Below the pieces are notes generated by a model. That model was not told the origin of the DNA and did not search any database. It saw only the letters and a list, made by a program, of their open reading frames with translations. From Myxococcales bacterium (GTDB taxonomy: Bacteria; Myxococcota_A; Polyangia; Polyangiales; Polyangiaceae), in NCBI GenBank assembly GCA_043779025.1, contig JAYWGI010000096.1:1-42191 (forward strand): a DNA stretch of 42,191 nucleotides, written 5' to 3'. The position numbers and the translations under genes are program-made. Position 1 is the first letter of the stretch; every line of letters starts with the position of its first letter. Shown here piece by piece: positions 1-42,177 of the stretch.

Positions 1-281
1 CGCTCCCCCGGATCGCTCACAATGGGCGTACCGGCATCACTCACATACGCCAGTGTTTTGCCGAGCAAAAGCTCGTCGGCGAGCGCTTGGACTTCGGCGT
101 CCGTGGAGTGGTCATGCAGCGCGCGCACGGTCTTCCCGCCCAGCTCCAGATGCGAGAGCAGGTTGCGTGTGTGGCGCGTGTCTTCGGCTACGACGATGTC
201 CGCAAGTTTGAGCGTATCGACGGCGCGGAGTGTAATGTCCCCCAAATTTCCAATGGGTGTGGACACCACGTAAAGCGTCAT
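1..281 (-). CDS. rsmI: 16S rRNA (cytidine1402-2'-O)-methyltransferase RsmI, N-terminal ~93 codons; the 3' end runs off the window
   Basis: The minus-strand frame is open to the window edge. It is absent from the ORF track because no stop lies in the window. ATG is at 281..279. The translation MTLYVVSTPIGNLGDITLRAVDTLKLADIVVAEDTRHTRNLLSHLELGGKTVRALHDH...LAYVSDAGTPIVSDPGE matches the RsmI N-terminus as I recall it (..PTPIGNL..AEDTRH..SDAGTP..DPG). Confidence 0.85.
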   Translation of the reverse strand, partial: MTLYVVSTPIGNLGDITLRAVDTLKLADIVVAEDTRHTRNLLSHLELGGKTVRALHDHSTDAEVQALADELLLGKTLAYVSDAGTPIVSDPGE

Positions 282-1306
282 GTGAGATCCGTCGCGTCGC
301 CCAGCTCTGCTTTTAGGTAGTCGCGCAGGCGCCCGGTCACACGTTGCTCAATCTGGCGCACGCGTTCGCGGGAGACACTGTAGCGATCGCCCAACTCCTG
401 CAGCGTCATGGGTTCGTCAGCCACGAGGCGTTCATCAAAAATAGCAAGCTCCTTTTCGTGCCGCAGCAGCGTGAGCCTGAAGCTCGCAAGCTTGTCCTTG
501 AGCATGGTTTGCAGTTCCTCGCCCGCGGCCAGCACCTCGGGGCCATCGGCGCTGGAGGCCAGCAAATCACCACGTGAAATGGTGCGTCCTTCGCCGTCGT
601 TGAGCGGCGCGTCCAGCGATTTCTCACCGCTCGAGAGACGGATGTCCATCTCGGTCACGTCGGTCTCCGAGACGCCAAGCTCTTTGGCGACGACCTCGGC
701 CGTGGGGCGAATCCCCATGGCTTCGAGCTGCGCTTTGGTCTTTTGCAAGTTGAAGAACAGCCGGCGCTGGTTCTGCGTCGTGCCTACCTTCACGAGGCGC
801 CAGTTGTTCAAAATGAACCGCAGCATATAGGCACGGATCCACCACGCCGCGTAGGACGACAGCTTCACCCCGCGGTATGGGTCGTAGCGCTTCACCGCTT
901 GCATGAGGCCGATGTTGCCCTCCTGCACGAGGTCCATAATGTTCTTGTACGCGCGCCGGTACTCGTACGCGAGCTTGACCACCAAGCGCAGGTTCGAGGT
1001 CACCAGCTTGGCTGCCGCTGCGGGGTCTTGATGCTCCACATAGCGGACGGCCAGGTCGCGCGTTTCGTCAGCGGTGAGCAACCGGTGGCGCTGCACCTCA
1101 CGCATGTAGGCCGCGAACGGGTCCAGGCGCGCGAGCGAGGCCTCACCGGCCTTGCCGGTACTCCGAGTGCGCACCGGCTTGATTGGGAGTTCGAGGTCCT
1201 TTTCATCGATGTCGGCGAGCAGATCCGGCTCGGCATCGTCATCCACGATTTCGGTTTCGAGTTCTTCGCCCGCGGCGGTCTGAGACTTGGGATTTTCGTC
1301 GCTCAC
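278..1306 (-). CDS. rpoH: RpoH-like (sigma-32 family) RNA polymerase sigma factor, 342 aa
   Basis: This is the C-terminal 342 codons of track ORF 278..1852. Region 2 reads DLVQEGNIGLMQAVKRYDPYRGVKLSSYAAWWIRAYM. An RpoH-box-like QNQRRLFFNLQK is present. Region 4.2 reads TLQELGDRYSVSRERVRQIEQR. I chose GTG at 1306..1304, preceded by AAGAGG with 7-nt spacing (VSDENPKSQ...). The longer ATG-started ORF would run through the divergent gene at 1397. Confidence 0.85.
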   Translation of the reverse strand: MSDENPKSQTAAGEELETEIVDDDAEPDLLADIDEKDLELPIKPVRTRSTGKAGEASLARLDPFAAYMREVQRHRLLTADETRDLAVRYVEHQDPAAAAKLVTSNLRLVVKLAYEYRRAYKNIMDLVQEGNIGLMQAVKRYDPYRGVKLSSYAAWWIRAYMLRFILNNWRLVKVGTTQNQRRLFFNLQKTKAQLEAMGIRPTAEVVAKELGVSETDVTEMDIRLSSGEKSLDAPLNDGEGRTISRGDLLASSADGPEVLAAGEELQTMLKDKLASFRLTLLRHEKELAIFDERLVADEPMTLQELGDRYSVSRERVRQIEQRVTGRLRDYLKAELGDATDLT

Positions 1307-1396
1307 GTGTATACCTCTTAGGGGCAAAGACAGGGGTCGTGTAGCACGCCCAAGCCCACGTGGGCGAGCGCTCTCCTTGCCAGTATTTCGAAGCCC

Positions 1397-2542
1397 ATGA
1401 CATCCATCCCGCCTGCCGCTCCGCACGAAGCGCTCCACCAGCCAAGCTTCGCCTTGGACGAGGCGGACTTCGAGTGGTTGCGAGGTGCGGAAAGCTCGCG
1501 CGCAGACGCGGCGGCCTTCGTGCTTCGGGTTCAGGCGTGGCTGGATGCCGAGCTCGCGGCGGTGGGGCATCACGTCGACGGCCTCAGCACCGATTTGCAG
1601 TTCGATGTGCCCTCCGGCCGGGTGCGGGTGCGGCTTGGGTTGCAGGCGCGGGGTCCACGCAGTGGCGCCACCGTAGACTTGGAGATGGATGCCGTGGGTG
1701 TGCAGGCCTACTTGGTCATCCCCACGGCGCAGCGCGGTGGGGCGTACGTAGACGCAAAAAACTTTCATGCTGCACTCGCGGATGCTGCGGGCGCCGAGCG
1801 CCTCATGAAGTCGCTGGGCGATCTGCCCGATGTGTTCGTGATGGGCGCGCACGGTAAGCTGGTCACGGTGGGTCGCGACCCTGACCCCAAACGCGTGCAG
1901 CGCGCCATCGAAGATGCCGAGCTCCGCGACCTACCGTTTCTCTTGGGCTGCTCCTTTCCGCGCGCGACCGTGATGGCCTTGGGCGAGGATCTCGCCGACG
2001 CGCTCGACACGGTGCTGATGGCGCTCCTGCCTTTGCTGCATCAGATCGCTTGGTCGCCCGACAATGATTGGCTCCCCGCCCAACCGCGTTCCAGATCGCG
2101 AAGCGCCGTCGCGCGCGCACGTCGCCGCGGCCCCCCGCGAGACGCGGAGCGACGCCGATCCATTCTGGAATCGCTTGCGCTAGACGGCGAACCTCCTGCC
2201 GACATGGCGGGCACAAACGAATCTGATCGCGCGCCGCCGCGAGTCGCACTGGCCCTGCCTCGTCCAAAGTTGCATTCTACAACTTCTACGAGGGGCCTGC
2301 GAAGCTTGGTCTCGGCCGATCGCGTCGATGCTGGAATTCCTCTCGCTGTTGGAGCCAAGGTACGCGCTTCCACCGGCGCCTTCGAGGGTAAGGTGGGCAC
2401 GGTGCTCGAACTGGACGAGGCGCATGCACGCGTCGCGTTTGGGCCACTCACGGCGCGCTGCCGCAACGATGAACTGGGCGTGGTGGTTCCCCCGCGTACG
2501 CAGCCGCCGCTTGGCAGCTCGCACCGAAAGAAGAGCAAATGA
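1397..2542 (+). CDS. hypothetical protein with Arg/Pro-rich linker and C-terminal KOW-like segment
   Basis: The ORF is 381 aa with GC3-rich coding character and no catalytic motif that I recognise. The C-terminal GAKVRASTGAFEGKVGTVLELDE..ARVAFG resembles a KOW motif. Its stop overlaps the next start (ATGA at 2539-2542). The start codon lacks a clear RBS. Confidence 0.55.
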   Translation: MTSIPPAAPHEALHQPSFALDEADFEWLRGAESSRADAAAFVLRVQAWLDAELAAVGHHVDGLSTDLQFDVPSGRVRVRLGLQARGPRSGATVDLEMDAVGVQAYLVIPTAQRGGAYVDAKNFHAALADAAGAERLMKSLGDLPDVFVMGAHGKLVTVGRDPDPKRVQRAIEDAELRDLPFLLGCSFPRATVMALGEDLADALDTVLMALLPLLHQIAWSPDNDWLPAQPRSRSRSAVARARRRGPPRDAERRRSILESLALDGEPPADMAGTNESDRAPPRVALALPRPKLHSTTSTRGLRSLVSADRVDAGIPLAVGAKVRASTGAFEGKVGTVLELDEAHARVAFGPLTARCRNDELGVVVPPRTQPPLGSSHRKKSK

Positions 2543-9844: not shown

Positions 9845-9904
9845 CGCGTGGGTCGGCAATCAACTTGCATAAACCTAACGTGCGCGTAACGTGCTGGCTT
9901 CGTC

Positions 9905-11995
9905 ATGAAAGAGCCTACCGCAGTACCTCTCGGGCCGGTGTTCTCGCTTGCCGACAATCTGCGCGGTCTTGCCACGAGCTGGACGGGAGAATGGCGCGAT
10001 GTCGTTGCGCAGAGGGCCTTTGTCGCCGACCTGCTTGCGGGCTTGACGGTTGCCGCGGTCGCGCTCCCGTTGAATCTTGCACTTGCCGTGGCGAGCGGGC
10101 TGCCCGCGAGCGCGGGGCTCGTTTCGGGGGCGATTGGTGGCGGCATCGCGGGCTTCTTTGGTGGGGCATCGTTGCAAGTCACAGGGCCAGCGGCGGCACT
10201 CTCCACCATGGTACTCGCGCTCGCCGTGGAGTTTGGTGCCGAGGGCGTGGCGGTGGCCTGTTTGGTTGTAGGGGTGGTGCAGCTTGCGATGGGCCTCTCG
10301 GGGGCCGGTCGACTCGCGAGGTACGTGCCCGAGTCCGTGCTGGCCGGATTCACGACGGGCGTTGGTCTGAAATTGCTCGATGGTCAGGTGCCCGAGTTTC
10401 TGGGCTTCAAGATCTTGGGCTTCGACCACAAGCTCATCGACATCGCAAAAATGATGCACGAGCCCAAGTGGCTGCATCATGTGTCGTGGCTCTCGGTGAC
10501 ATGTGGCTTGGCGGTCGCATTTATGGTCACCAAATTTGCAGCCTACAAGCGCTTTCCGGCCGCCATTGTAGGCATTGCGTTGGCGACATTTGTATCCGTG
10601 TACTTGGACTGGGACATCTCGCGCGTGGGTGAGGTGCCGTCTTCGCTTCCGCATCCCAGCCTCCCATCGCTGGACGACGACCGCTTGCTCGACCTTCTGG
10701 TCGCGGCCGTGCCGCTCGGTGTGCTTGCGGGCGTTGAGTCCTTGCTGTCTGCGCGCGGCGTCGACCGTATGGTGCCAACGCGCAAGGCGCACAATTCAAA
10801 CCTCGAGCTGGTTGGACAAGGCCTGGCAAACGCGGCTGTGGGACTCATGTCAGGCTTGCCGGTCAGCGGCGTCGTGGTGCGTTCTACCGTGAACGTGCAG
10901 AGCGGAGCGAAGACGCGTTTGGCGTCCATCACGCACGCGGCGCTGCTGGTCGTGGCCGTGCTGTACCTCAGCAAGTTCATTGCTCAAGTGCCCGTGGCCG
11001 CGCTGGCGGGCCTCTTAATCGTGATCGCAATTCGGCTCGTGGAGGTGCGCGAGCTTGTGCATCTTGCGAAGACCGACGTTGCGGGTGCCCTGGCCTTTGT
11101 GGTCGCCTCAGTCGGTACCCTATCGGGGCATCTTATGCTGGGCCTGGTGGGGGGGCTCGTCGTGCATCATGTAAGCGCGTATTTACGGCGCCTTGATCCT
11201 ACGACGACGCCTCGTGTGCTGCGAGAGGCGGGCAGTCAGGGCCAGGAACACGGCGTGCGAGCAACGCTCGGGCGCGCGCAGGCCCTGGCCCGCCGACCGT
11301 TGGGGCGAGGTCATGGGCCTGTGCCCGAAACCGCCAAGTGGCTGTCACAGATTCAAGGGCGCGGCTTGCGTGCGCGCAGTTCGTTTGTGCATGAGCAGGC
11401 GTCCGTCGTGGGGCGCGTGTTCATGGGCGACAACGTGCATATTGCAGCGGGTAGCTCGGTGCGTGCTGACGAGGGAACGCCATTTTTTATCGGCGCCAAC
11501 ACCAATCTACAGGACGGAGTGACCTTGCATGCGCTCAAGGACAAGACCGTGAACGTGGCCGGTGAAGCGTGGGCCATCTACATCGGACAAGATGTCTCGG
11601 TTGCGCACAACGCTTTGGTGCATGGCCCTTGTTACGTTGGCGATCGCACCTTCATTGGTTTCAAGTCCATCGTGCACGACTCGGTGGTGGGATCCGACTG
11701 CTTCATTGGGCATGGGGCGACCGTGGTGGGCGTGGAGATACCGGACGGTCGCCATGTGCCTAGCGGCCGCATCGTGGACTCCGCCGAGGCCGTGGCCAAG
11801 CTGCCGCTCGCCACGGCGCAGCAACATGAGTTCAACGAGGATGTGGTGTACGTGAACATTGGTTTGGCCGAGGCGTATCAAAAGGATCGCATCTCGCCGG
11901 CTCAGCCGGGAATGTCCGTGCAAGTGCGCAAAGATTCGCTGGCCAGCTGGGAGTCCAGCTGGGTACCGGCGCCGTTTTCGAAGGAGAGGTTCTAA
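9905..11995 (+). CDS. SulP-family anion transporter fused to a Cam-type gamma-carbonic anhydrase domain (no STAS domain)
   Basis: 696 aa. The N-terminal ~430 aa is SulP-like polytopic membrane (..GLPASAGLVSGAIGGGIAGFFGGASLQVTGPAAAL..). A linker of about 60 aa is Arg-rich. The C-terminus (nt ~11380-11992) reads VRADEGTPFFIGANTNLQDGVTLHAL...VSVAHNALVHGP...IPDGRHVPSGRIV...EDVVYVNIGLAEAYQK. This parallels Methanosarcina Cam as I recall it (IRSDEGMPIFVGDRSNVQDGVVLHAL..VSLAHQSQVHGP..IPDGRYIPAGMVV..EAVVYVNVHLAEGYKE), including the three His ligand positions. Confidence 0.85.
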   Translation: MKEPTAVPLGPVFSLADNLRGLATSWTGEWRDVVAQRAFVADLLAGLTVAAVALPLNLALAVASGLPASAGLVSGAIGGGIAGFFGGASLQVTGPAAALSTMVLALAVEFGAEGVAVACLVVGVVQLAMGLSGAGRLARYVPESVLAGFTTGVGLKLLDGQVPEFLGFKILGFDHKLIDIAKMMHEPKWLHHVSWLSVTCGLAVAFMVTKFAAYKRFPAAIVGIALATFVSVYLDWDISRVGEVPSSLPHPSLPSLDDDRLLDLLVAAVPLGVLAGVESLLSARGVDRMVPTRKAHNSNLELVGQGLANAAVGLMSGLPVSGVVVRSTVNVQSGAKTRLASITHAALLVVAVLYLSKFIAQVPVAALAGLLIVIAIRLVEVRELVHLAKTDVAGALAFVVASVGTLSGHLMLGLVGGLVVHHVSAYLRRLDPTTTPRVLREAGSQGQEHGVRATLGRAQALARRPLGRGHGPVPETAKWLSQIQGRGLRARSSFVHEQASVVGRVFMGDNVHIAAGSSVRADEGTPFFIGANTNLQDGVTLHALKDKTVNVAGEAWAIYIGQDVSVAHNALVHGPCYVGDRTFIGFKSIVHDSVVGSDCFIGHGATVVGVEIPDGRHVPSGRIVDSAEAVAKLPLATAQQHEFNEDVVYVNIGLAEAYQKDRISPAQPGMSVQVRKDSLASWESSWVPAPFSKERF

Positions 11996-14847: not shown

Positions 14848-16584
14848 CTAAGCCGGGCCGCCACCTGCTGTGCAGTTCGCGTTGCAATTCTCTGTGCCGT
14901 CGCATTGCTCGCCACCCGCTGTTTGAAGCACGCCGTCGCCACAATATCCCCCGCGCGAGCGGCAGTCGGCGGCGCACTTACCATAAGCGGGCGTAGTGCT
15001 GGGGTCATTTCCGGCGCCTTCATCGCACGCTTCCGTACGGGTCTTGACGCTGTCGCCGCAGCGCGGTGTGCATACGGATTTGGCGCGCTCAAAGCCGCGC
15101 AGTGTGAGCTTGTAGTTGGACTCGTCGGTGTGCCGCTCCGCTTGGAATACGGCAATCTCGTAGACGCCCTTGTCGATCAATCCAAGGTCAGTACCTGCGA
15201 TTTTGCAGACATCCGTCACGGTGTTTGGCACGCCAATGCACGTCGGGTGAATTGTCACACTTTTGCTCAGCGCGCCGTGCACGCCCCCAATGTCTACAGC
15301 CAGCCGCCCGTTGACGAAGACGAATACGTCGTCGTCTCCGCTAAACTCAAGCTTCGGCGCAGGAGCGCTGGCATCGTGCGAGAACCAAAATTTTACCTCG
15401 CTCGTGAAGTGATAGTTGTAGCCCGCCAACAGCGCTTCGCGCTGAGCGGCGGGCACGCTGGCCGCAGTCCAGCCTTTGTTGGTGAGCGGAAAGAACTGGC
15501 CGGATGGGTTTGGCGTCCCGTCTGGGTTGCTCAACGCGCTGTCGAACACGTAGCTTTGGTCGGCCTGCTTTTTCAGTCGAAGGCCTCCGAGCTCCGTCTT
15601 GTTGAGCGCGTCGTCCCGGAACCACTTGGCAAACTCTGCAGGGCTCGTCAGAAGCCCTTGTGACGAGAGGAAAACGGGCTTGCCATCGCCGTCGAGTAGC
15701 CCGGCAACCATGCCCGTTGGGGACCCGCAACAAAACGCTTGGAAATCTGGGTGCCCGCTGGCAGCAAGATTTGCCGCCCCATCGCCGCGCTTAAAGTCGC
15801 GGTAGACTACAGGGAGGTCGACGAAGTCAGGCAGCGCCTGAACCTGAGTTGCACAGGTGAATCCTGCCTCTTCGGTGCAGGTCGCGCTGCAGCCGTCACC
15901 GCTGCGCGTATTGCCATCATCACAGCTTTCGGTCGGGTACTTGAGACCATCCCCGCACACGGCGCTGCAGCCGGCGCCTGCCGTGCAGACCGGCTCCTTA
16001 TGGCATGTCGGGTCGCAGCCGTCGTAGGCGCGCAGGTTGCCATCGTCACATTGTTCACCGCCCTCGGGCGTGCCGTTGCCGCAAACAGTAACCGTACACG
16101 CGGCTCCCGGAGTGACACACTGATAGCCATCTTGAAGCTTGCAGCTGGTGTCGCAACCGTCGCCTGACGCTGCGTTTCCATCGTCGCAATCCTCGTCGCC
16201 AACCCGTAGCCCGTCGCCACAACGTGCGGCATTGCATACGGCTCCGTCGATGGCGCAAATCCACCCCGTTTCGACTTCACACGTTAAGCTGCAGCCGTCG
16301 CCCCCCGTGGCGTTTCCGTCGTCGCAGCTCTCATTGCGGGAACGGCGTGAATCACCGCATACAGCCAAGACCGACCCGTCCGTGCTGGGTTGGACATTGC
16401 CGGTGTCCGCAGAGCCACTCCCGAGGATGGGGCCGGTCGCGTCGTTGCCTGAGCCGCCAGCTGCGTCTACTGGAAGTGGAAACACGTTTCCTATTTCCGT
16501 GGTTCCGCAAGCCGGACCCAGGGCGCCGGCTGCAAGCAGAGGCAACAATCCAAGGGAGCTCCAAGCAACGCGGCGTCTGTTCAT
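14848..16584 (-). CDS. secreted cysteine-rich-repeat protein with PA14/fibro-slime-type domain
   Basis: 578 aa. The signal peptide is MNRRRVAWSSLGLLPLLAAGALG. Four N-terminal CGDG..E.CDDGN...GDGC..C repeats are present. The central domain reads ..LPVVYRDF...HPDFQ...FTSEVKFWF...FSGDDDVFVFVNGRLAVDIGGVH.., which is PA14-like. Degenerate Cys repeats occur at the C-terminus. Confidence 0.85.
   Translation of the reverse strand: MNRRRVAWSSLGLLPLLAAGALGPACGTTEIGNVFPLPVDAAGGSGNDATGPILGSGSADTGNVQPSTDGSVLAVCGDSRRSRNESCDDGNATGGDGCSLTCEVETGWICAIDGAVCNAARCGDGLRVGDEDCDDGNAASGDGCDTSCKLQDGYQCVTPGAACTVTVCGNGTPEGGEQCDDGNLRAYDGCDPTCHKEPVCTAGAGCSAVCGDGLKYPTESCDDGNTRSGDGCSATCTEEAGFTCATQVQALPDFVDLPVVYRDFKRGDGAANLAASGHPDFQAFCCGSPTGMVAGLLDGDGKPVFLSSQGLLTSPAEFAKWFRDDALNKTELGGLRLKKQADQSYVFDSALSNPDGTPNPSGQFFPLTNKGWTAASVPAAQREALLAGYNYHFTSEVKFWFSHDASAPAPKLEFSGDDDVFVFVNGRLAVDIGGVHGALSKSVTIHPTCIGVPNTVTDVCKIAGTDLGLIDKGVYEIAVFQAERHTDESNYKLTLRGFERAKSVCTPRCGDSVKTRTEACDEGAGNDPSTTPAYGKCAADCRSRGGYCGDGVLQTAGGEQCDGTENCNANCTAGGGPA
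15853..16359 (-). repeat. four tandem ~35-45-aa cysteine-rich repeats (coding) in the PA14 protein gene
   Basis: Residues C76 to C244 contain four units: CGDSRRSRNESCDDGNATGGDGCSLTC.., CGDGLRVGDEDCDDGNAASGDGCDTSC.., CGNGTPEGGEQCDDGNLRAYDGCDPTC.. and CGDGLKYPTESCDDGNTRSGDGCSATC.. Confidence 0.8.
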
Positions 16585-16908
16585 ACCCTAAGGGTGCATG
16601 GTGCCTCCTGCCCGGGCAAGTCCGTTGTTTAACTTCTTCCCCCGGCCCGTGAGTCTGGCTGATGGAGCGGTTCGCAACAATGGAGTGGGCCCGCCCACCA
16701 CATGCGCACATGACGTGCACACGGAGTCCACGCTGCGAGCAAAAAAGCGCCTTTTTGCGTACATGTCGCACCCTGTGCGCTCTACTGCCGATCGGCGGCA
16801 TTCCACATTCGGCCGTATCGCAAATCGCGGAAGATCGCGGCGTTCTTGTTCGCCCAAATAGTTATGCATGGCGAGTGCACGTTGTCGAGGCGCCCTACAA
16901 ACTTTTTT

Positions 16909-16924
16909 TGGCACGGTGCTTGCT
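16909..16924 (+). promoter_or_regulatory. sigma-54 (-24/-12) promoter for the downstream sigma-factor gene
   Basis: TGGCACGGTGCTTGCT equals the TGGCACG-N4-TTGCW consensus exactly. GG is at 16910-11 and GC at 16922-23. It lies 45 nt upstream of ATG 16969, which has a GAGGAG RBS at 16958-16963, and it is preceded by a T7 tract. Confidence 0.6.
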
Positions 16925-16968
16925 GGGGGTTCTACGGACACCCCAGTCCACCTTTTGAGGAGCACCGA

Positions 16969-18477
16969 ATGAGCCGTCACCGCGCCGAAGCCCCCGCAGT
17001 TGCCTTTCCAACCAAAGACTTGGAGCCGATTTCCGCGCGTTCGTTCGAGCTAGAAGATCGCGGTCCGGCTTCGGTCCCCATGTCGGTGGGGCCTCGCAGC
17101 CGTATGCCCGCGAGCAAGGTTCTTGAGCTGTCGCCCTCAGAGGACGACGAGGTCGAGTCGCCATCGGAGAACGAGGGCCTCGCTCCTGAGAGCACGGTGG
17201 TTGTGCGCAGTACGCAAGCTTCGGAAGAGGGGGCGGACAACATGCTGTCTCGCTACTTCCGCGACATGTCGAATCACGACGTGATGACGCAAGAAGCCGA
17301 AGCGCAGCTCGCCAACTCGGTGGAGGATGCTGAGAGCAATCACTGGAGCACGCTGCTTAGCTACGAGTCTGAATCGGTTGCTTTGCTCAACTTCGTTGCT
17401 GGCGAGGCCGCCAAGCTTGCAGAGAGCACGGCCGTGCGCGGTTTGGCGGAGTTGACTGCGCTGTTCACCAAACGCGCTTCGGGAAAGAGTGTGCGTGCGA
17501 AGGACCTCGCAAATGAAAAAATCTGGCTGCGCGAGTTCGGTGAAGATGTGCGGCGATTGGATGTCGATCGTGAGTGGATGTACGCCGCGGCCCGTTTCGC
17601 CAAGACAGGCCGTCTTGATGGTCGCAGTTCCTCATTTGATAGCTCCGAAGACGAACAGACTTCTCGTAACGCTGTGAAGACTGAGACCGAGGACGATGAC
17701 CGTCCCAGCCTGCGTGTGGTGGATACTGCGCGTCTTGCATGGATTGCGCGCATTGACGAAAGCACCCGTGTGGTGCGCTCGGCCAAGGATCGCTTCGTGC
17801 GCGCCAACCTCCGTTTGGTCGTCTCCATCTCGCGTCGTTACAACCGTGGTCGCATGTCACTCATCGACATCATCCAGGAGGGAAACATCGGCCTTATGAA
17901 GGCGGTAGAGCGCTTCGATTACAAGAAGGGCTTCCGCTTCTCTACCTACGCGTCGTGGTGGATTCGTCACGCCATCAGCCGCGCCATGGCCGACAAAGGC
18001 CGCGCAGTCCGCGTCCCTGTGCACATGCTCGACTCGCACTACAAGGTACAGAAGATCACGTCCGCCATGCGCACTTTGGTGGGCCGCGCCCCTACGCTCG
18101 CTGAGCTTGCCGAGACCACGGGCTTGCCCGAGGACAAGCTGAGCAAGATGTTGCCTGGTGTGACGGAGACCCCGCTGTCGCTGGATCGCACGGTGGGCGA
18201 TGACGAAGGCTTACGCTTCATCGACTTCTTGGAAGACGAGAGCCCCTGCGACCCTTCGGAGCGCATGCAAAACGAGGCGTGGCGCTCGGAAGTGGAGCGT
18301 CTCATGGGCCAGCTCTCGCCGATGGAAAACCGTATCTTGCGTCTGCGTTTTGGTTTCGAGAATGAAACCGAGCTCACGCTGAAGGAGATCGGCGAGCAGT
18401 ACAACCTCTCCCGTGAACGCATCCGTCAACTTCAGGAGCAGGCGCTCGGGAAGATGCGCAAGCAGCTCGACGACTGA
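16969..18477 (+). CDS. RpoD-family (group 1/2-like) sigma-70 factor, 502 aa
   Basis: The ATG at 16969 has a GAGGAG RBS. The track start at 16846 would place the sigma-54 promoter inside the CDS. The region 1.2-like stretch is MLSRYFRDMSNHDVMTQEAE. Region 2 is IQEGNIGLMKAVERFDYKKGFRFSTYASWWIRHAISRAMAD. Region 3 is VRVPVHMLDSHYKV. Region 4.2 is TLKEIGEQYNLSRERIRQLQEQALGKMRK. Confidence 0.85.
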   Translation: MSRHRAEAPAVAFPTKDLEPISARSFELEDRGPASVPMSVGPRSRMPASKVLELSPSEDDEVESPSENEGLAPESTVVVRSTQASEEGADNMLSRYFRDMSNHDVMTQEAEAQLANSVEDAESNHWSTLLSYESESVALLNFVAGEAAKLAESTAVRGLAELTALFTKRASGKSVRAKDLANEKIWLREFGEDVRRLDVDREWMYAAARFAKTGRLDGRSSSFDSSEDEQTSRNAVKTETEDDDRPSLRVVDTARLAWIARIDESTRVVRSAKDRFVRANLRLVVSISRRYNRGRMSLIDIIQEGNIGLMKAVERFDYKKGFRFSTYASWWIRHAISRAMADKGRAVRVPVHMLDSHYKVQKITSAMRTLVGRAPTLAELAETTGLPEDKLSKMLPGVTETPLSLDRTVGDDEGLRFIDFLEDESPCDPSERMQNEAWRSEVERLMGQLSPMENRILRLRFGFENETELTLKEIGEQYNLSRERIRQLQEQALGKMRKQLDD

Positions 18478-18489
18478 TCCGATGCTCTG

Positions 18490-20049
18490 GTGAAACTTGC
18501 ACCCCCAAGTGCATTGTTTCCTCGCCTCAACAAGCCTCACGATGCCATTCTTGCATCGGTGAGGTTTTTGACTTTTCTGGCCGTGATGGTGTGTGTGTCT
18601 TGTATGCATTCGCGCACGGATACTCCGGCCATTGGTGCGAGCGATGCGGTCGAGATGTTGCTCACCACGGAGCCCGACACGGTGGACCCGCGTTACGCGA
18701 GCGATGCGATTTCGTCGCGGGCTTCCAGGTTGATCCATGCGGGGCTCTTCAAATTGGACCCGAAGACGTTTGAGCCGGCACCTGATGTGGCTCAAAGCTG
18801 GGTGCAAGAATCGCCTACCCGCGTGCGCGTGCTTTTGCGTTCTGACGCGACCTTCCACAGCGGGGCGCCTCTGACCTGCGAGGACGTACGGGCGACGTTA
18901 TCCGCCGTGGCGTCGCCGGAGACGCGTTCGCGTGCGGGGCAGGCGTTTCGGAATATTCTGGTCACATCCTGTGTTTCTCCTCATGAAGTGCTTCTGGAGC
19001 TGCGCGCGCCCCAAGCTTCGCTCCTGGCAGACTTGTGTTTTCCCGTCTTGCGCGCCGATCAAGCGGCTGCTGCCGCGTCGGACACACAAGATGGCTTGGG
19101 TCCCTATCGCGTGCGGTCCCGCGAGCTCGGCCTTTGGACACTTGAACCTGCGTTTCCCGGGCAGCCTGGCGCGCCTACGCGCGTCGTACGCTTGCGTGCG
19201 GTAGGAGACGAAAATGCGCGCGCGCTCCGGCTCTTGTCGGGGCGTGCCGACATTGCCTCAGGCGTGCTTTCGCCCATGCTCGCAGACGCGCTCGGGCGCC
19301 GTGGCATGCGTGTGCGCGAGACCGATGGTGTAAACCTCACCTATCTGGTCGCGCGTACGGACGCCGGCCCCTCTGCCGCGCGCGGGCTTCGCAGCTACCT
19401 GCGCACGCACACGCCGCGCGCGGAGATCATTGCGGGCATGCTTGCGGGCCACGCGCGCATCGCGGAGCAGATCTTACCGCCGCGCGTGTTGGCTCTTGCC
19501 GCTGAGCCTCAGCCTGGCCAGCCCGGCCAGCTCGGCCAGCCCGTGGCGCCAACCGAGGCCGCACACATCGCAGGCGCACATGCAGAGTTGCTGGTCGGAA
19601 CCGATCGCATGCGCGTGGCCATCGCGCGCGCCATGGCAGATGAGTGGGCCAAGGGCGGCGTGACGGTCGATGTGGTCCCCCTGGACCTCGGTGTGCTCTT
19701 GGGGCGCCTTAGTCGCGGCGAGTTCATGTTCGCCATGTTGCAACTGCCGGACCTTACCGAGCCCGGCCTACTTCGCACGTTGTTGCATTCCAAATCTTTA
19801 CCGCCCTACGGCATGAATCGGAGCCGCTACGCCAATGCGCGGGTGGACGCTTGGCTGGACGCGGCCGAGAGCGAGCTCAACCTCGTGCAGCGCCGGGCGC
19901 TCTACGCTCGTGTTGAGGAAGCTAATGCGCATGACTTGGCGTTGATGCCGCTCTGGCGGGAGCAACATGTCGCCGTGGTGTCTGAGCGCGCGCTCAGCTA
20001 CGCGCCCGGCGCGGATGGACATTGGGGGGCGCTATGCGATCTTCGGTAG
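18490..20049 (+). CDS. family-5 (OppA/DppA-like) ABC solute-binding protein, orphan
   Basis: ..TEPDTVDPRYASDAISSRASRLIHAGLFKLDP.TFEPAPDVAQSW.....TRVRVLLRSDATFHSGAPLTCEDV.. is typical of SBP_bac_5. A hydrophobic signal region FLTFLAVMVCVSC is present. The start is uncertain (GTG 18490, GTG 18559 or ATG 18586). No permease or ATPase genes are adjacent. Confidence 0.75.
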   Translation: MKLAPPSALFPRLNKPHDAILASVRFLTFLAVMVCVSCMHSRTDTPAIGASDAVEMLLTTEPDTVDPRYASDAISSRASRLIHAGLFKLDPKTFEPAPDVAQSWVQESPTRVRVLLRSDATFHSGAPLTCEDVRATLSAVASPETRSRAGQAFRNILVTSCVSPHEVLLELRAPQASLLADLCFPVLRADQAAAAASDTQDGLGPYRVRSRELGLWTLEPAFPGQPGAPTRVVRLRAVGDENARALRLLSGRADIASGVLSPMLADALGRRGMRVRETDGVNLTYLVARTDAGPSAARGLRSYLRTHTPRAEIIAGMLAGHARIAEQILPPRVLALAAEPQPGQPGQLGQPVAPTEAAHIAGAHAELLVGTDRMRVAIARAMADEWAKGGVTVDVVPLDLGVLLGRLSRGEFMFAMLQLPDLTEPGLLRTLLHSKSLPPYGMNRSRYANARVDAWLDAAESELNLVQRRALYARVEEANAHDLALMPLWREQHVAVVSERALSYAPGADGHWGALCDLR

Positions 20050-31561: not shown

Positions 31562-34500
31562 TTGAGAATTCCCGTTCGTTATAGGCTGTTGAAACCCTTG
31601 GGTTCGGGCGGCGCAGGTAGCGTGTGGTCGGTGCAAGATCGGGTGACGGGAGAGCGGCTGGCGCTCAAGCTTGTTCATGAAGGCGCGTCTGTGGGCGAGC
31701 TCGACGCATTGGTCCGAGAGGCAAGCGCGCTTGCAGCACTGTCACAAGCTGGGCTGCCCGGTGTGCGGGCCATCGGTCTTTTGCCGGGTACCCATCGTCG
31801 CTACCTGGTGCGCGAATTGGTTGAGGGGATCAGTTTGGACGATGTGCTCGAAAGCGACTTGCCTTGGCTGGGCGCATTCCTTTCCGCGTGCGATCAGCTT
31901 GCGCTGCTTCATCGTGCCGGGTCGCTTCACGGGGACATCAAGCCCGCCAACGTCATTGTGTCCAAGAGTGGCAGGGGGTGCCTTGTGGACTTGGGGCTCT
32001 CGGCGCCTCTCACACTTGGGGGCACACGAACGTTGGGGCTTACCCCGCGTTTTGCGGCGCCCGAGCTGCTCGAGGGCGAGCGCCTAACCGTGCGTGCCGA
32101 GGTCTATTCGGTGGGGGCAACGTTGCGCGATTGTGTCGCGCGACGCGGAGATGAACTGCGCGAGGATTTGCGCCTTGGCCTCACCCGAGCGGTGAACCGC
32201 GCGATCTCCTTGCAGCCGGCTGCGCGTCACCCGTCGGTAGACGAATTTCTTGCCGAAATTGCGGCCGTTCCGGGCGTCGAGTTGCCTGCGCGCTCGCGGG
32301 CGCTGGTTTGGCGCGTGGACGGAATTTCCGACACGGTACGTGGAATCGCCGACAGCGTACGGGCGCTGCAGCACGGACAAATACTTGGGATGTGGGGCCC
32401 CACAGGAAGCGGTCGCAGCACGCTCGGGCGCGAGCTTGCGTGGAGCTTCGCCGCCGGCGGAGAGGACGTGGTTCATATCGTCCCCGCTGTGGACCAGCGC
32501 GCGGAATTGCAGTCGCTTGGGGCCAAAGTCTTGGCGATTTATGCGGAGGAACTTGCGGCACGCCCCGATGCCGTGCTGGTTGTGGACGACTTCGATCGCT
32601 TGAGCGAAGAGTCGCGCATGGCCTTACTCGCGCTGCAAGAGGCGAAGCATCGCGCGGTGCTTGTTGGGCATGATGCGCATGCTTTTGGGGGTCTAGAGAT
32701 TGCAGCCCACTACGAGGTTCAGCCGCTGAGCATCGCGAGCCAAGAGTCCCTCGTTCGTACGGCCATCCCTTCGGCCTCACGCACGGCCGTCCTGGCGATA
32801 GTGGACCATGCAAAGGGGAGGCCCGGAGCGCTACGCGAGCTGGTGGAGCGCTGCGCAGGGAGTGCGATGGTGAGCCGTGGTGATGTTGAGCGAGCCAAGT
32901 TTGGTGCGGCGACGCACGGCACCCAAGACTGGAACGAGGTGCTGCGTTCGGCGCTCAACTCAGGCCGTTTCGCCGCGGCGCGCGTGGCGCTACAGGAGCT
33001 CGAAAAAGGAGCCGCGACGGCGCATGCTTTTGAGCGCTGCCTAGGTGAGGTGCGGGTGCGCATTGCGCAGGGCGACAACGAAGGGGCTGGTATGTGGTTG
33101 GGGCGCGCCGAGGCAGCGGGCGCAAGTCGCCACGAGCGTGTAGAAGTGCACTTGTATCGAGCGCGCTTGATGCTGCGAAGTGGCGACTATGACGGGATTG
33201 AGCCTGTGCTTTCGAGCGCCGTTTCGCTGGGTGAAGCCACCTTCGAGCTGCGCGTCGTGGCCGCGCTGGCACAAGCCATGGCGCGCCCTACTCTGCAAAA
33301 CGTTGCCGTGTTGCATGCGCTGCATCGTGACATGTCGCCCGAGCAAGGGCCGCGTGCTCGCGCCATCGCAGCAGGTTCGCTCGCCATCGCGGAGCAGCGT
33401 GCAGGGGATACCGAAGCCGCGCGCGCGCACTATGCTGAAGCGGTTGTGAACGCTGAAGAAGCGGGCGACGGCTGGGTCCTATGTTCAACTTACGTGAACA
33501 GTGCCGGCCTTGCGCACGTGGCAGGTCAAATGGTCGATGCGCTGCGCCTCTGTGAAGCCGCCATCGACCTTGCCGAACGTTTGGGTGCCGATTTGGCGGC
33601 GTATACGGCGACCCTAAACTTGATCGCTTTCAATCTTCAGCTGGGACGCTATGAGCGAGCGGCAAAAAGTATCGGCTCGCTCGAGGACTACGATCTCTCG
33701 CCCTACGCCGACGCGCAATTGTACGGCCTGCGTGCGGAGCTATTGGAGCGTGGCCTCAATTGGGACGAGGCAAGTGTAAACTACACTCAATGCGCCGAAC
33801 GCTTCCGTGCCATCGGTATGCATGCCGACGCCTGCGAAGCGGAGCTCAACTTGCTTTCGTGCGATACCGCACGGGCGCAGATCGCAAACTCAGATTTGGA
33901 GCGCCGTCTCGAGGCGTTGCGTTTGACCTCTGAAGAGGCGGGCGCGACAGAGATTCAGTCCCTGTGGAATTACGTGGCTGCTCGTGTGATGCGCCGCGTG
34001 CGGGGGCCGCACGAAGGGCTCGCCGCCTACTTGACGGCTGCAGATGTGGCGCGAAAGTCGTCTTCGAAGGAGCTGCTTTGGCAAGCATTGCAGGGCGTTG
34101 CCGAGGCGCATCGTGACTTAGGGGCGCCTGCGCTGGGGCATCGCGCGGCCACCGAGGCGCTCGAAGTATTGGAGGCGATTGCGTTGCCGTTGCCGCGAGA
34201 CCTCTGTGAGGTGTTCTGGAATGACGTGCGCCGATCGGAATTGCGTGGTCTTGCGGCCTCTCCCTCGCTTGGGGGCGTGTCCGTGGGGGCGCCCACCGTG
34301 GGGGCGGCATCGTCGATGGCCATGCAGCACTTGATCCAAAGCGCGCGTGCGTTGGTTCGAGTGCACGACCCCGAGCGAGTACTGCATGACACCTTAGAAC
34401 ACGCCGTAGCGATCGTCGGCGGTGTGCGGGGCATGCTCTACTACCGCGACCCGTTGGGCCGCCCCGCATGGGTGACGCCTTACAACTTTGAACCCGCGCA

Positions 34501-35860
34501 AAACGCGAACGTCCGGGCGCGTTTGGAGCAGTGCGCCGATTCGGGAGAAGTGCAGCTGAGCGCCGAAGGCGATGCGGGGGCATTTGTCTGCATGCCCATC
34601 CCCCGAACACCGATGCAGGTGGGGTTGTCGACCACAGTGGGCGGCCTTAACCAGGGGGCAATTTACGTGCAGACTGCAAGTACATCTCAGACACGTCTTA
34701 ACGAAAATGCAGGCGTGCTCGCTGCTCTGCTTGCGCAGGCCGCCGCGGTTTTAGACACGGCCCGTTTGGTGGCGAGACTCAAGCGTCAGAAGGAGCGCGT
34801 GTCCGAACTTTTGGACAAGCGCAGCCGCTCGCTGCATAGCTCCCGGGCAGAGTTGCGGGCGGTCAGGTCGGAGCTCAAGGAGAGCCAGAGCTTTGGCGCG
34901 ATGGTGGGAAGTTCGAAGCCGATGCGGATGCTCTTCGAAGCGATTCGCCGTGTCGCACCATCGGACATACCTGTGCTGGTGCGGGGCGAGAGCGGGACTG
35001 GAAAGGAGCTGGTCGCGCGCGCACTGCATGAGGCCTCGCCGCGGAAGGATGCGCCCTTTGTCGCGATCAACTGTGCTGCAATTCCGGCATCGGTGCTCGA
35101 AGGCGAGCTATTTGGCTATAGAAAAGGCGCGTTCACAGGGGCAACGCGAGACCACGAGGGCTTAGCGTTGGCAGCGCGTGACGGTACATTTTTTCTGGAT
35201 GAAGTGGGCGAGATGCCACTGGCAATGCAGGCCGCGATGCTGCGCGTGCTCCAGGAGCGCGTGGTGCGTCCACTTGGTTCCTCCGACGAGGTGCCGATGC
35301 GTGCGCGCGTCATCGCTGCAACGCATCGTGACCTTGCCGCGATGGTGCGCGAGGGCACCTTCCGCGAAGACCTCTACTATCGCATCGAAGTCGTCACACT
35401 GCACGTGCCGTCGCTTCGGGAACGCCGCGAAGACATCGGACTGCTTGCCGACTCCTTTTTGCGACGCGCGAGTGTGGCGCACAATCGTCCTCGAAAAACG
35501 TTGAGTCGTAGTGCTCGCGAATTGCTGATGTCCGCGCCCTGGCCCGGCAACGTGCGTCAGCTGGAGCATACACTGACTTCCGCTGTGCTCTTCTCGGATG
35601 ACGAAACGCTGCATGCGGCAGACTTGAACCTTGTGCGCGCCGACGCCGAGACTCCTATGCGTTTGGGCACCGTGCCTAGCGGCAAAGATGTGGCCGGGTT
35701 GAGCTCCCAGCTGTGTGACAAGGAGCGCTGTTTGCAGGCCCTGGAAGTCGCGGGGGGCAATCGTGTTCGCGCGGCGAGTGCACTCGGAATCCCGAGACGA
35801 ACCTTCTATAGGCGCCTCGCAGAACTCGGAATTGGCGCAAAAATCTCAAAAAAAGCCTAG
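31562..35860 (+). CDS. multidomain regulator: Ser/Thr protein kinase - P-loop NTPase (STAND-like) - TPR-like helical region - GAF - sigma-54 AAA+ activator - Fis-type HTH, 1432 aa
   Basis: The kinase has [27 protein letters not shown] (HGD at 31928-31936), VDLGLS and FAAPELL. The P-loop is [14 protein letters not shown] (Arg codon at 32414-32416 where Lys is expected), with Walker [12 protein letters not shown] long Ala/Leu-rich helical repeat region follows. The GAF-like stretch is ..[31 protein letters not shown].. The EBP has [25 protein letters not shown] (35126-35143), [19 protein letters not shown] and FREDLYYRI. The HTH is [26 protein letters not shown]. The only possible starts upstream of the glycine loop are TTG codons (31562 or 31589). 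Confidence 0.85.
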
Positions 35861-41090: not shown

Positions 41091-41133
41091 TGTACACTTG
41101 AGCGTTGCCCGGGCTTCCACAACGCCCCTCTCT

Positions 41134-42177
41134 ATGAGACGCTCAAAACTAAGCGCGATGGCCGAGAAGAAATCCGAACATCAGACCGAACGCGAGGTGG
41201 TAAAGCCTCGCGCTTCCTTGTTGCCGGGAGACTTGTCGGGCTTTCGGCTTTCGTCGATCCCATCGATCGACGAAAACGATGTACCTACCGAAGAAAAGGT
41301 GCCGACGCTCGCCTCCTTGGGTGGTGAAGCCTGCGGAATACTCACTGTGCTCAGCGGGTTCAATGCAGGGCAAGTTCAGGTGCTCGCGGTCGGCGACTGC
41401 GTGGTTGGCCGAGGCCAGGACGCCGATTTTTGGGTCGACGATGCGGGCGTCAGTCGTAAGCACTCGCGGTTCATCAAGCGAGGGGACAGCTTCTACGTAG
41501 AGGACTTGGGGTCCACCAATGGCACGTTTGTCGACTCCCAAAAAGTGGTGGGCGCGCAGCGGTTGGGCCCATCGCATCGTGTGCAGTTGGGGGCCTCCGT
41601 GCAGGCCTCTTTCGAGATCGTCGACGTGGCCCAGGCGCTGCTCCGAAAGCGCCTTTACGACACGTCTACCCGAGATGCGCTTACGGGTGTCTATACCCGA
41701 AAGTATTTTTTGGACCGCTTGCCCACGGAGATCGCCTACGCGCGCCGTCACCGCAGCGAACTTGCGCTTTTAGGTATCGATATCGATCACTTCAAAAAAG
41801 TAAACGACACCCATGGCCATGCTGCTGGCGACGCGGTACTCCGCGGTGTGGCCGATCGACTGCTGCAGCTTATTCGAATCGAAGACGTGCTCGTCCGCTT
41901 CGGCGGCGAAGAGTTTTTTATCTTGGCTCGAACCACCGAGGCCGTGCAGTCGGGGGCGCTGGCGGAGCGTATCCGCCGCGCGATTGAGATATTTGTTGTA
42001 CCGTTTGAGCTTACGCCTTTGAGCGTCACGCTGAGCATCGGGGCATGCAACCTCTCGGAGGTTGCATCGGGCGACGCCGAAGAGTTCTTACGTATCGCAG
42101 ACACGCGCATGTACACCGCCAAGCAAACCGGACGAAACCGCGTGTGCTTCAAGGATCCGCTACCTGTTTCCGAATAG
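41134..42177 (+). CDS. FHA-domain diguanylate cyclase (GGDEF) with RxxD I-site
   Basis: The FHA region is ..VVGRGQDADFWVDDAGVSRKHSRFIKRGDSFYVEDLGSTNGTFVD.. The GGDEF region is ..DALTGVYTRKYF...IDIDHFKKVNDTHGHAAGD..RIEDVLVRFGGEEFFIL. GGEEF is at 41902-41916, and RIED at 41875-41886 lies five residues upstream. The start is uncertain (TTG 41098, ATG 41134 or ATG 41158). Confidence 0.85.
   Translation: MRRSKLSAMAEKKSEHQTEREVVKPRASLLPGDLSGFRLSSIPSIDENDVPTEEKVPTLASLGGEACGILTVLSGFNAGQVQVLAVGDCVVGRGQDADFWVDDAGVSRKHSRFIKRGDSFYVEDLGSTNGTFVDSQKVVGAQRLGPSHRVQLGASVQASFEIVDVAQALLRKRLYDTSTRDALTGVYTRKYFLDRLPTEIAYARRHRSELALLGIDIDHFKKVNDTHGHAAGDAVLRGVADRLLQLIRIEDVLVRFGGEEFFILARTTEAVQSGALAERIRRAIEIFVVPFELTPLSVTLSIGACNLSEVASGDAEEFLRIADTRMYTAKQTGRNRVCFKDPLPVSE

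Follow-up and report, generated by a model that had tools for sequence, protein, structure and literature searches.

Organization of the sigma factor locus

The window considered here, namely, the whole 42,191-nucleotide (nt) contig JAYWGI010000096.1 of a Myxococcales bacterium (assembly GCA_043779025.1; Polyangiaceae), harbors a gene at positions 16969 to 18477 of the forward strand whose 502-amino-acid (aa) product resembles the sigma factor RpoD, and which is preceded on the same strand by a sequence, TGGCACGGTGCTTGCT (positions 16909 to 16924), with the properties of a sigma-54-type core promoter. This sequence is located within the 384-nt intergenic region between the sigma factor gene and a divergently oriented gene (positions 14848 to 16584, reverse strand) which, based on Pfam, encodes a DUF4215 cysteine-rich repeat protein. 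All 12 specified positions of the consensus TGGCACG-N4-TTGCW agree with TGGCACGGTGCTTGCT, and the GG of the −24 element (16910-11) and the GC of the −12 element (16922-23) display the canonical GG-N10-GC spacing, as had been stated in the original prediction, which was made by reading the sequence of the window alone. Its claim that this was the only full match on either strand also proved correct: TGGCACGGTGCTTGCT is the sole zero-mismatch match in the window, the runner-up identified in a scan with the GG and GC fixed carries two mismatches, and dinucleotide-preserving shuffling yielded a mean of 0.04 exact matches per window, with at least one such match in 4 of 100 shuffles.

A T-tract (TTTTTT, positions 16903 to 16908, forward strand) abuts the −24 element and runs on into the T of TGGCAC. 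Standard sigma-54 geometry would place the transcription start at approximately position 16935 (16933 to 16937, forward strand), 12 nt past the C of the −12 GC, thus predicting a leader of approximately 34 nt. This leader appears to be unstructured, as it folds no differently from shuffled sequences (z = −0.1); it also lacks an Rfam match, and on both grounds the idea that it harbors an RNA element was discarded. A ribosome-binding site, GAGGAG (positions 16957 to 16962, forward strand), is read directly from the sequence, being part of the segment GAGGAGCACC that is conserved in relatives, and is followed by the ATG at positions 16969 to 16971, which is separated from the end of TGGCACGGTGCTTGCT by 44 nt and thus begins 45 nt past it, in agreement with the predicted arrangement. 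A simple consensus scan of the 384-nt intergenic region identified no sigma-70-type promoter, other promoter types being outside the reach of such a scan.

The assignment of the gene to the RpoD family was likewise upheld. Its 502-aa product matches the Pfam models for sigma-70 regions 2, 3, and 4, while the Pfam model for region 1.2 was not matched and region 1.1 was not detected; a family alignment nevertheless revealed an invariant 1.2-like segment, ML.RYFR.M, and the protein furthermore includes a long non-conserved region. The C-terminal 230 residues align to solved RpoD structures (E = 1e-65), and the top NCBIfam matches are RpoD models, all of which score far under their curated cut-offs (299 versus 555 for the RpoD equivalog NF004208 and 255 versus 354 for TIGR02393). 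RpoS models likewise fail (215 versus 378.7 for TIGR02394 and 200 versus 394 for NF004207), as do the NCBIfam RpoH models. These subthreshold scores, combined with the sequence features, argue that the protein is an RpoD-like alternative (i.e., non-primary) sigma factor and not the housekeeping factor. Throughout the family, region 2.4 (positions 17770 to 18477, residues ~330 to 340) reads WWIRHAISR versus WWIRQAITR in RpoD, a His thus replacing the Gln with which RpoD presumably contacts base −12 of its −10 hexamer, while region 4.2 retains the segment RERIRQ. Such features hint that this sigma family may combine RpoD-like −35 recognition with altered −10 recognition.

Conservation of the probable promoter in close relatives

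The sigma family comprises thousands of database proteins, those with a named source being derived from Polyangiaceae, Labilithrix, Minicystis, Sorangiineae, and "Myxococcales" metagenome-assembled genomes. The window protein belongs to a divergent branch (here termed the window clade) that shares approximately 45% identity with the main body of the family, within which the identity is 73 to 80%. Three distinct proteins with 84 to 89% identity to the window sigma factor were traced to their contigs (L001, L004, and L007), in which the same gene order was observed: a DUF4215 gene divergent from the sigma factor gene, followed by genes for an SBP_bac_5 solute-binding protein and a beta-lactamase-like protein. 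Assembly GCA_043778435.1 represents the closest relative.

The mean identity across the aligned intergenic regions of the window and these relatives is only 60%, and yet TTTGGCACG-NN-GCTTGCT is invariant in all four, the sole variation being confined to two unspecified spacer bases (GT, TC, or GC). This pattern is what would be regarded as a classical phylogenetic footprint of a −24/−12 promoter. A T-run of three to nine bases is, in addition, present directly 5′ of TGGCAC in the window, L001, L004, and L007.

The same comparison bears on the start codon. The ATG at position 16969 is in frame with an open reading frame (ORF) that could begin at TTG 16846 and that ends with the stop at 18477, and the motif would then be contained within coding sequence. 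Within the window clade, however, the motif-to-ATG distance amounts to 60, 62, 55, and 61 nt (phases 0, 2, 1, and 1), and in both L001 and L007 a TGA stop codon occurs in frame, 12 nt ahead of the ATG; the leader is, therefore, judged to be non-coding. Based on these non-triplet indels and in-frame stops in the leaders of relatives, the strong ribosome-binding site, and a family-wide conserved N terminus (MS[KRNQ]K..) that fits initiation at this position, ATG 16969 is assigned as the start codon, while TTG 16846 and ATG 16864 were rejected as true starts for the window clade owing to the leader indels and stops. The start codon originally proposed was thus retained; the argument offered for it, that the longer ORF would contain its own promoter, was not, since in many relatives the longer ORF does precisely that, as outlined below.

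Conservation of the probable promoter across the sigma factor family

Two profile scans were performed in the search for more distant loci. The first employed the full-length family alignment on genome contigs; dominated by the segments IQEGNIGL and FSTYASWW, it recovered little other than generic RpoD genes, with only L008 to L010 being of use. The second, in which metagenome contigs were scanned with the family-specific N-terminal part of the alignment alone, yielded 80 loci. At each locus, the 600 nt that precede the conserved N-terminal match were then searched for TGGCACG-N4-TTGCW with GG and GC fixed and up to two mismatches allowed. The motif was detected at 56 of 79 distant loci, with 58 matches on the coding strand versus a single match on the opposite strand, and its density in this upstream region (1.255 per kb) represents a 46-fold enrichment relative to the remainder of the same loci (0.0275 per kb). 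Widening the scan to 900 nt resulted in 64 versus 2 matches on the coding and opposite strands, respectively. Many of the remaining loci carry weaker variants of the form GG[TA]A[CT][GA]-N4-[TG]TGCA, such as GGTACG-N4-GTGCA and GGAATG-N4-TTGCA, with 11 forward matches and no reverse matches at up to three mismatches.

A profile constructed from 49 distinct sequence contexts, [C/T]GG[C/a/t]ACG..A.TTGC[A/T], retains C, A, C, and G past the GG, TT ahead of the GC, and A or T behind it, while the unspecified positions 8 and 11 vary the most. The conservation upstream of orthologous sigma factor genes that had been suggested as a check was thus found both in the three close relatives and in a majority of the distant loci, and the footprint and the family-wide, strand-specific enrichment lend support to both the predicted promoter and the regulatory cascade proposed from it. 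Judged by this distribution, the putative promoter is ancient and has been conserved within a large sigma factor family of the Polyangia (Myxococcota).

A DNA element within a probable N-terminal extension of relatives

In relatives belonging to the MTSR, MSQR, and MPTR subgroups, the sigma factor ORF can be traced without a stop for 156 to 261 nt ahead of S2, the conserved MS.K start, back to an earlier ATG that is likewise conserved (S1), and the sigma-54-like motif falls inside this S1-to-S2 extension. Several observations are pertinent to its coding status. The S1-to-motif and motif-to-S2 distances keep frame over at least 12 different lengths; in-frame stops are absent, versus 76 and 43 stops (MTSR) and 20 and 13 stops (MSQR) in the other two frames; and an excess of third-position diversity is apparent (0.31 versus 0.21 and 0.18; 0.34 versus 0.225 and 0.217), which moves with the shifted frame. 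Constraint on the extension is much weaker than past S2, and its base composition is atypical for coding sequence. The extension nonetheless appears to be translated in relatives of these three types.

A conserved peptide could, therefore, be envisaged as the reason for which the motif is maintained in a longer sigma factor (i.e., the product of the ORF from TTG 16846 or from an upstream ATG) and, indeed, the open frame across the motif, the frame-preserving indels, and the third-position excess are as such an explanation would have it, the motif encoding A-R-N-L-L-K or A-R-I-L-Q-K within the extensions. The motif is, however, read in codon phase 2 in the MTSR, MSQR, and MPTR subgroups, in phase 3 in the Polyangiaceae-type loci L010, L124, L135, and L168, and in phase 1 in the window, and at least 12 loci possess in-frame stops that separate it from the start. 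Because the motif occurs in all three phases as well as in untranslated leaders, the conserved entity is, as far as can be deduced from these alignments, a DNA element and not a peptide. As the flanking residues of the extension are, furthermore, poorly conserved, and as the peptide explanation is refuted for the window clade itself by the varying motif-to-ATG phases and the TGA codons of L001 and L007, we regard it as very unlikely.

A Shine-Dalgarno-like sequence precedes S2 in 24 of 25 loci versus S1 in 7 of 25, a pattern which fits an mRNA that would start at the motif and be translated from S2. The presence of a translated extension upstream of the promoter in turn implies at least one further, upstream promoter in these relatives. 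As other promoters may thus be active as well, the strict dependence on sigma-54, with an on/off input, that formed part of the original prediction goes further than the data support. It is tentatively proposed, as an idea that we consider somewhat more doubtful than probable, that the extension found in most Polyangia lineages encloses the sigma-54 promoter and that one gene would thereby yield two isoforms, a long form produced from the upstream promoter and S1 and a short form produced from the sigma-54 promoter and S2, the window clade having dispensed with the extension so that nothing but the short form, driven by sigma-54, is left to it. If so, the signal sensed by the activator would switch between isoforms.

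In most family lineages the extension is basic and rich in Pro, Ser, Ala, and Thr, spans 50 to 90 codons, and starts with M[TSP].R..[QK].K; examples are located at L101 (2048 to 2294), L091 (2096 to 2312), and L108 (1559 to 1715), with approximately 40 similar cases among L088 to L167 and additional ones at L010, L124, L135, and L168. Gene callers have annotated both long (~550 aa) and short (~465 aa) versions of the sigma factor of relatives. Loci of the L101 and L091 types also display a conserved non-coding sequence, TG[GA]ATCT...ACGTA[CT]T, approximately 30 to 75 nt upstream of S1 (approximately −140 to −190 relative to the motif), as well as another block approximately 300 nt upstream, these non-coding blocks including an inverted repeat, GGAACA.A-N12-14-T.TGT, exemplified by TAGACTTTGTCTA. 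Such blocks, which are not common to the window clade, could represent the upstream promoter of the long form or activator-binding sites.

Sigma-54 machinery and candidate regulatory sites

The window harbors, unlinked to the sigma factor gene, a gene at positions 31562 to 35860 (forward strand) which encodes a 1,432-aa fusion protein composed of a Ser/Thr kinase (Pkinase), an AAA/STAND-like segment, tetratricopeptide repeats (TPR), a sigma-54 activator AAA+ domain (Pfam Sigma54_activat, 2.9e-67), and an HTH_8 DNA-binding domain. Its GAFTGA loop is intact at residue 1189, this being the motif which contacts sigma-54 and whose loss marks activator homologs that no longer use sigma-54 (PMC3162934). 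The gene provides indirect support in that it points to an organism which runs sigma-54 transcription; nothing ties it to the sigma factor gene as the cognate activator. As a fusion of this kind, the protein would represent an uncommon, single-polypeptide route from kinase signaling to sigma-54 activation.

Two sets of conserved sequences upstream of the core promoter are of potential regulatory relevance. The blocks AGTTATGCATGG and GTTGTCCAA (GTTGTC(C/G)A), at positions 16860 to 16889 on the forward strand (approximately −75 to −46 from the predicted start), are kept amid diverged spacer sequence in L001, L004, and the window, and also in L007 to the extent that this region is present there, and AGTTATGCATGG includes an ATGCAT palindrome. 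These blocks constitute a candidate site for an activator, IHF, or another regulator, which may act on the sigma factor gene or on the divergent DUF4215 gene. A further conserved block, GCAACAATGGAGTGGGC..CCACAT (positions 16673 to 16703, forward strand), contains the inverted repeat ATGGAGTGGGC/GCCCACCACAT (16680 to 16703) and is located approximately 235 to 260 nt upstream of the predicted start and approximately 100 nt from the divergent gene, so that it could serve as a regulator site for either gene. The divergent intergenic region also contains a 20-nt near-perfect palindrome, GCAAAAAAGCGCCTTTTTGC (16739 to 16758), which was rejected as an activator site because it is not conserved in the close relatives, the window possessing an insertion at this location.

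Interpretation and alternative explanations

On the basis of the above, we consider it likely, and hold this with considerable confidence, that TGGCACGGTGCTTGCT is a functional sigma-54 promoter for the sigma factor gene. Because this promoter has been maintained ahead of the family's genes throughout the Polyangia, the cascade from sigma-54 to a sigma-70-family factor is very probably real. We infer transcription from TGGCACGGTGCTTGCT, its start site, and its dependence on an activator from sequence. According to the proposed mechanism, sigma-54 RNA polymerase would bind TGGCACGGTGCTTGCT as a closed complex, which would be remodeled by an ATP-hydrolyzing enhancer-binding protein encoded elsewhere; transcription from approximately position 16935 would then produce a short leader, free of stable structure and bearing a strong ribosome-binding site, allowing translation from ATG 16969. 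The outcome would be a two-tier cascade in which sigma-54 and its activator direct synthesis of the sigma-70-family factor, which in turn would direct its own regulon.

A number of findings weigh against this interpretation. The window does not contain rpoN, a gene that myxobacteria are known to encode, and a tblastn search with the AAA+ core of the window activator identified no activator gene within approximately 2.5 to 3 kb of the sigma factor gene at 94 family loci (407 kb). When the 240 nt upstream of 27 representative motifs were compared, no 7-mer was shared above shuffled controls, and a family-wide upstream activator site was thus not apparent. Among the 56 motif-positive distant loci, many are near relatives of one another, and independent lineages are hence fewer than the counts suggest, with approximately a dozen clearly different contexts remaining, and no convincing motif was found at L170, L171, and L008.

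The main alternative is that sigma-54 holoenzyme binds TGGCACGGTGCTTGCT non-productively, either as a poised or repressive closed complex that acts as a roadblock or occluder of another promoter or because a cognate activator is lacking under all conditions. Conserved, transcriptionally silent sigma-54 sites, often intragenic, have been documented in Escherichia coli (PMC4591121), and these constitute a further point against a productive promoter; the lack of both a linked activator gene and a shared upstream site, and the position of the motif inside a translated extension in many relatives, would also be compatible with binding of this nature. We nonetheless deem it unlikely, since the geometry in the window clade is that of a working promoter (strand, leader of approximately 34 nt, strong Shine-Dalgarno sequence, and no other recognizable promoter) and since the Shine-Dalgarno-preceded S2 that follows the motif in relatives fits a transcript originating from the motif. 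A further alternative is that the element is bound by some unrelated regulator or, as part of a longer leader, functions as an RNA-level signal, in which case its −24/−12 likeness would be coincidental. Features outside the sigma-54 consensus are also maintained, namely, the T-tract in the window clade and a GAAAAC following the motif in large subgroups. Conservation is, however, strongest at the positions specified by sigma-54, with gap positions 8 and 11 being the most variable across the dozen or so contexts, the leader has neither an Rfam match nor a stable structure, and a coincidental 12/12 match is expected only 0.04 times per 42 kb; such a role is, for these reasons, judged to be decidedly unlikely. 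A functionless chance match, which 4 of the 100 shuffled windows would admit, is contradicted by conservation in close and distant relatives, the 58:1 strand bias, and the 46-fold enrichment, and it is regarded as extremely unlikely.

Gene neighborhood and other genes of the window

Downstream of the sigma factor gene, and in the same order in the close relatives, lies the SBP_bac_5 solute-binding-protein gene (positions 18490 to 20049, forward strand; Pfam). The junction between the two genes displays only a weak terminator-like site, and they are possibly co-transcribed. The neighborhood differs from that of main-family loci (L168 to L171, Polyangiaceae-type). There, a divergent ABC-F-type ATPase gene lies upstream and the downstream position is taken by a Peptidase_S13 (PBP4-like) gene, whereas in the window clade these places are occupied by the DUF4215 gene and by the SBP_bac_5 and beta-lactamase-like genes, respectively. 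A penicillin-binding-type enzyme is common to both neighborhoods.

A second sigma-70-family gene is present at positions 278 to 1852 (reverse strand). The C-terminal 270 residues of its 524-aa product pass the NCBIfam cut-off for the sigma-32 subfamily (269 versus 241), and this RpoH-like protein, which shares 31% identity with the 502-aa sigma factor, possesses an unusual N-terminal extension of approximately 240 aa that lacks a domain match; the window scan detected no sigma-54 motif upstream of its gene. An intergenic GG-N10-GC sequence with three mismatches, CGGCAATCAACTTGCA (positions 9854 to 9869, forward strand), precedes by 51 nt the ATG at position 9905 of a gene encoding a SulP-family transporter fused to a hexapeptide-repeat domain, and may represent another sigma-54 promoter of the window, albeit a weaker one. 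At the window edge, positions 41098 to 42177 (forward strand) encode an FHA-GGDEF diguanylate cyclase, which is another sign of dense signaling linked to Ser/Thr phosphorylation in this organism.

Relation to known sigma cascades

Circuits in which sigma-54 directs the synthesis of a sigma-70-family factor are already known in other bacteria. In Borrelia burgdorferi, sigma-54 directly transcribes rpoS with Rrp2 as the activator (PMC3037356, PMC11109971, PMC4014564). The present locus resembles this RpoN-RpoS system, at the level of sequence only, in that a −24/−12 promoter lies immediately upstream of a sigma factor gene of the RpoD/RpoS type, an arrangement through which a single ATP-dependent activator input would gate an entire secondary regulon. 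It differs in its phylogenetic setting (Myxococcota/Polyangia), in its target, which is not RpoS but a 502-aa RpoD-like protein with a long non-conserved region, and in that Borrelia has one activator whereas the organisms considered here encode many. In Pseudomonas syringae and Erwinia, sigma-54 together with HrpR/HrpS drives expression of the extracytoplasmic function (ECF) sigma factor gene hrpL (PMC5263251). While the logic of a sigma-54 promoter and enhancer-binding protein driving a sigma-70-family factor is shared, HrpL is a small group 4 (ECF) protein and the HrpR/HrpS genes are adjacent, in contrast to the group 1/2-like factor described here, with no activator gene within approximately 3 kb at the 94 loci.

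Tiered cascades from sigma-54 to a sigma-70-family factor also occur in the flagellar hierarchies of Vibrio, Pseudomonas, Legionella, and Campylobacter, in which sigma-54 acts with FleQ, FlrA, FlrC, or FlgR upstream of fliA/sigma-28, and one E. coli rpoH promoter is likewise transcribed by sigma-54. The target in the flagellar systems is, however, a group 3 sigma-28 factor, and nothing flagellar is present at the locus under study. The RpoN regulon of Vibrio cholerae has been described (PMC3439928). Within the same phylum, sigma-54/activator networks of Myxococcus xanthus, for which 53 activators are cited (PMC3162934), frequently involve core promoters inside coding sequence (Nla6, Nla28, and ActB; bioRxiv 10.1101/2021.11.28.470282), a situation that is paralleled by the intragenic motif position in many relatives of the present family. 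A literature search returned no report of a sigma-70-family sigma factor gene as a direct sigma-54 target in myxobacteria, or of this sigma family, an absence which does not constitute proof. Lastly, sigR of Streptomyces coelicolor specifies both SigR and the N-terminally extended SigR′ from two promoters (p1 and p2), one of which is located inside the longer frame (PMC4921905, PMC5472188). A similar pattern is suggested for relatives of the window gene, while the window clade, in contrast, appears to make the short form only. To what is known from other bacteria, the present analysis would thus add the conservation of such a promoter throughout a Polyangia sigma family.

A sigma-54 promoter remains silent for as long as it is not fired by an ATP-hydrolyzing activator, and the placement of a sigma-70-family factor behind such a promoter would, as in the Lyme disease spirochete, convert a single sensory input into a regulon-wide switch. 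The data presented here suggest that such wiring is of old standing and has been conserved in a large, so far uncharacterized RpoD-like family in the Polyangia, a group which includes Sorangium and other natural-product producers, and they offer a concrete entry point to the signal, the activator, and the regulon. The embedded promoter in relatives furthermore raises the possibility of isoform switching: if this were true, the signal that an enhancer-binding protein perceives would determine which form of this conserved RpoD-like sigma factor is made, and not merely how much of it.

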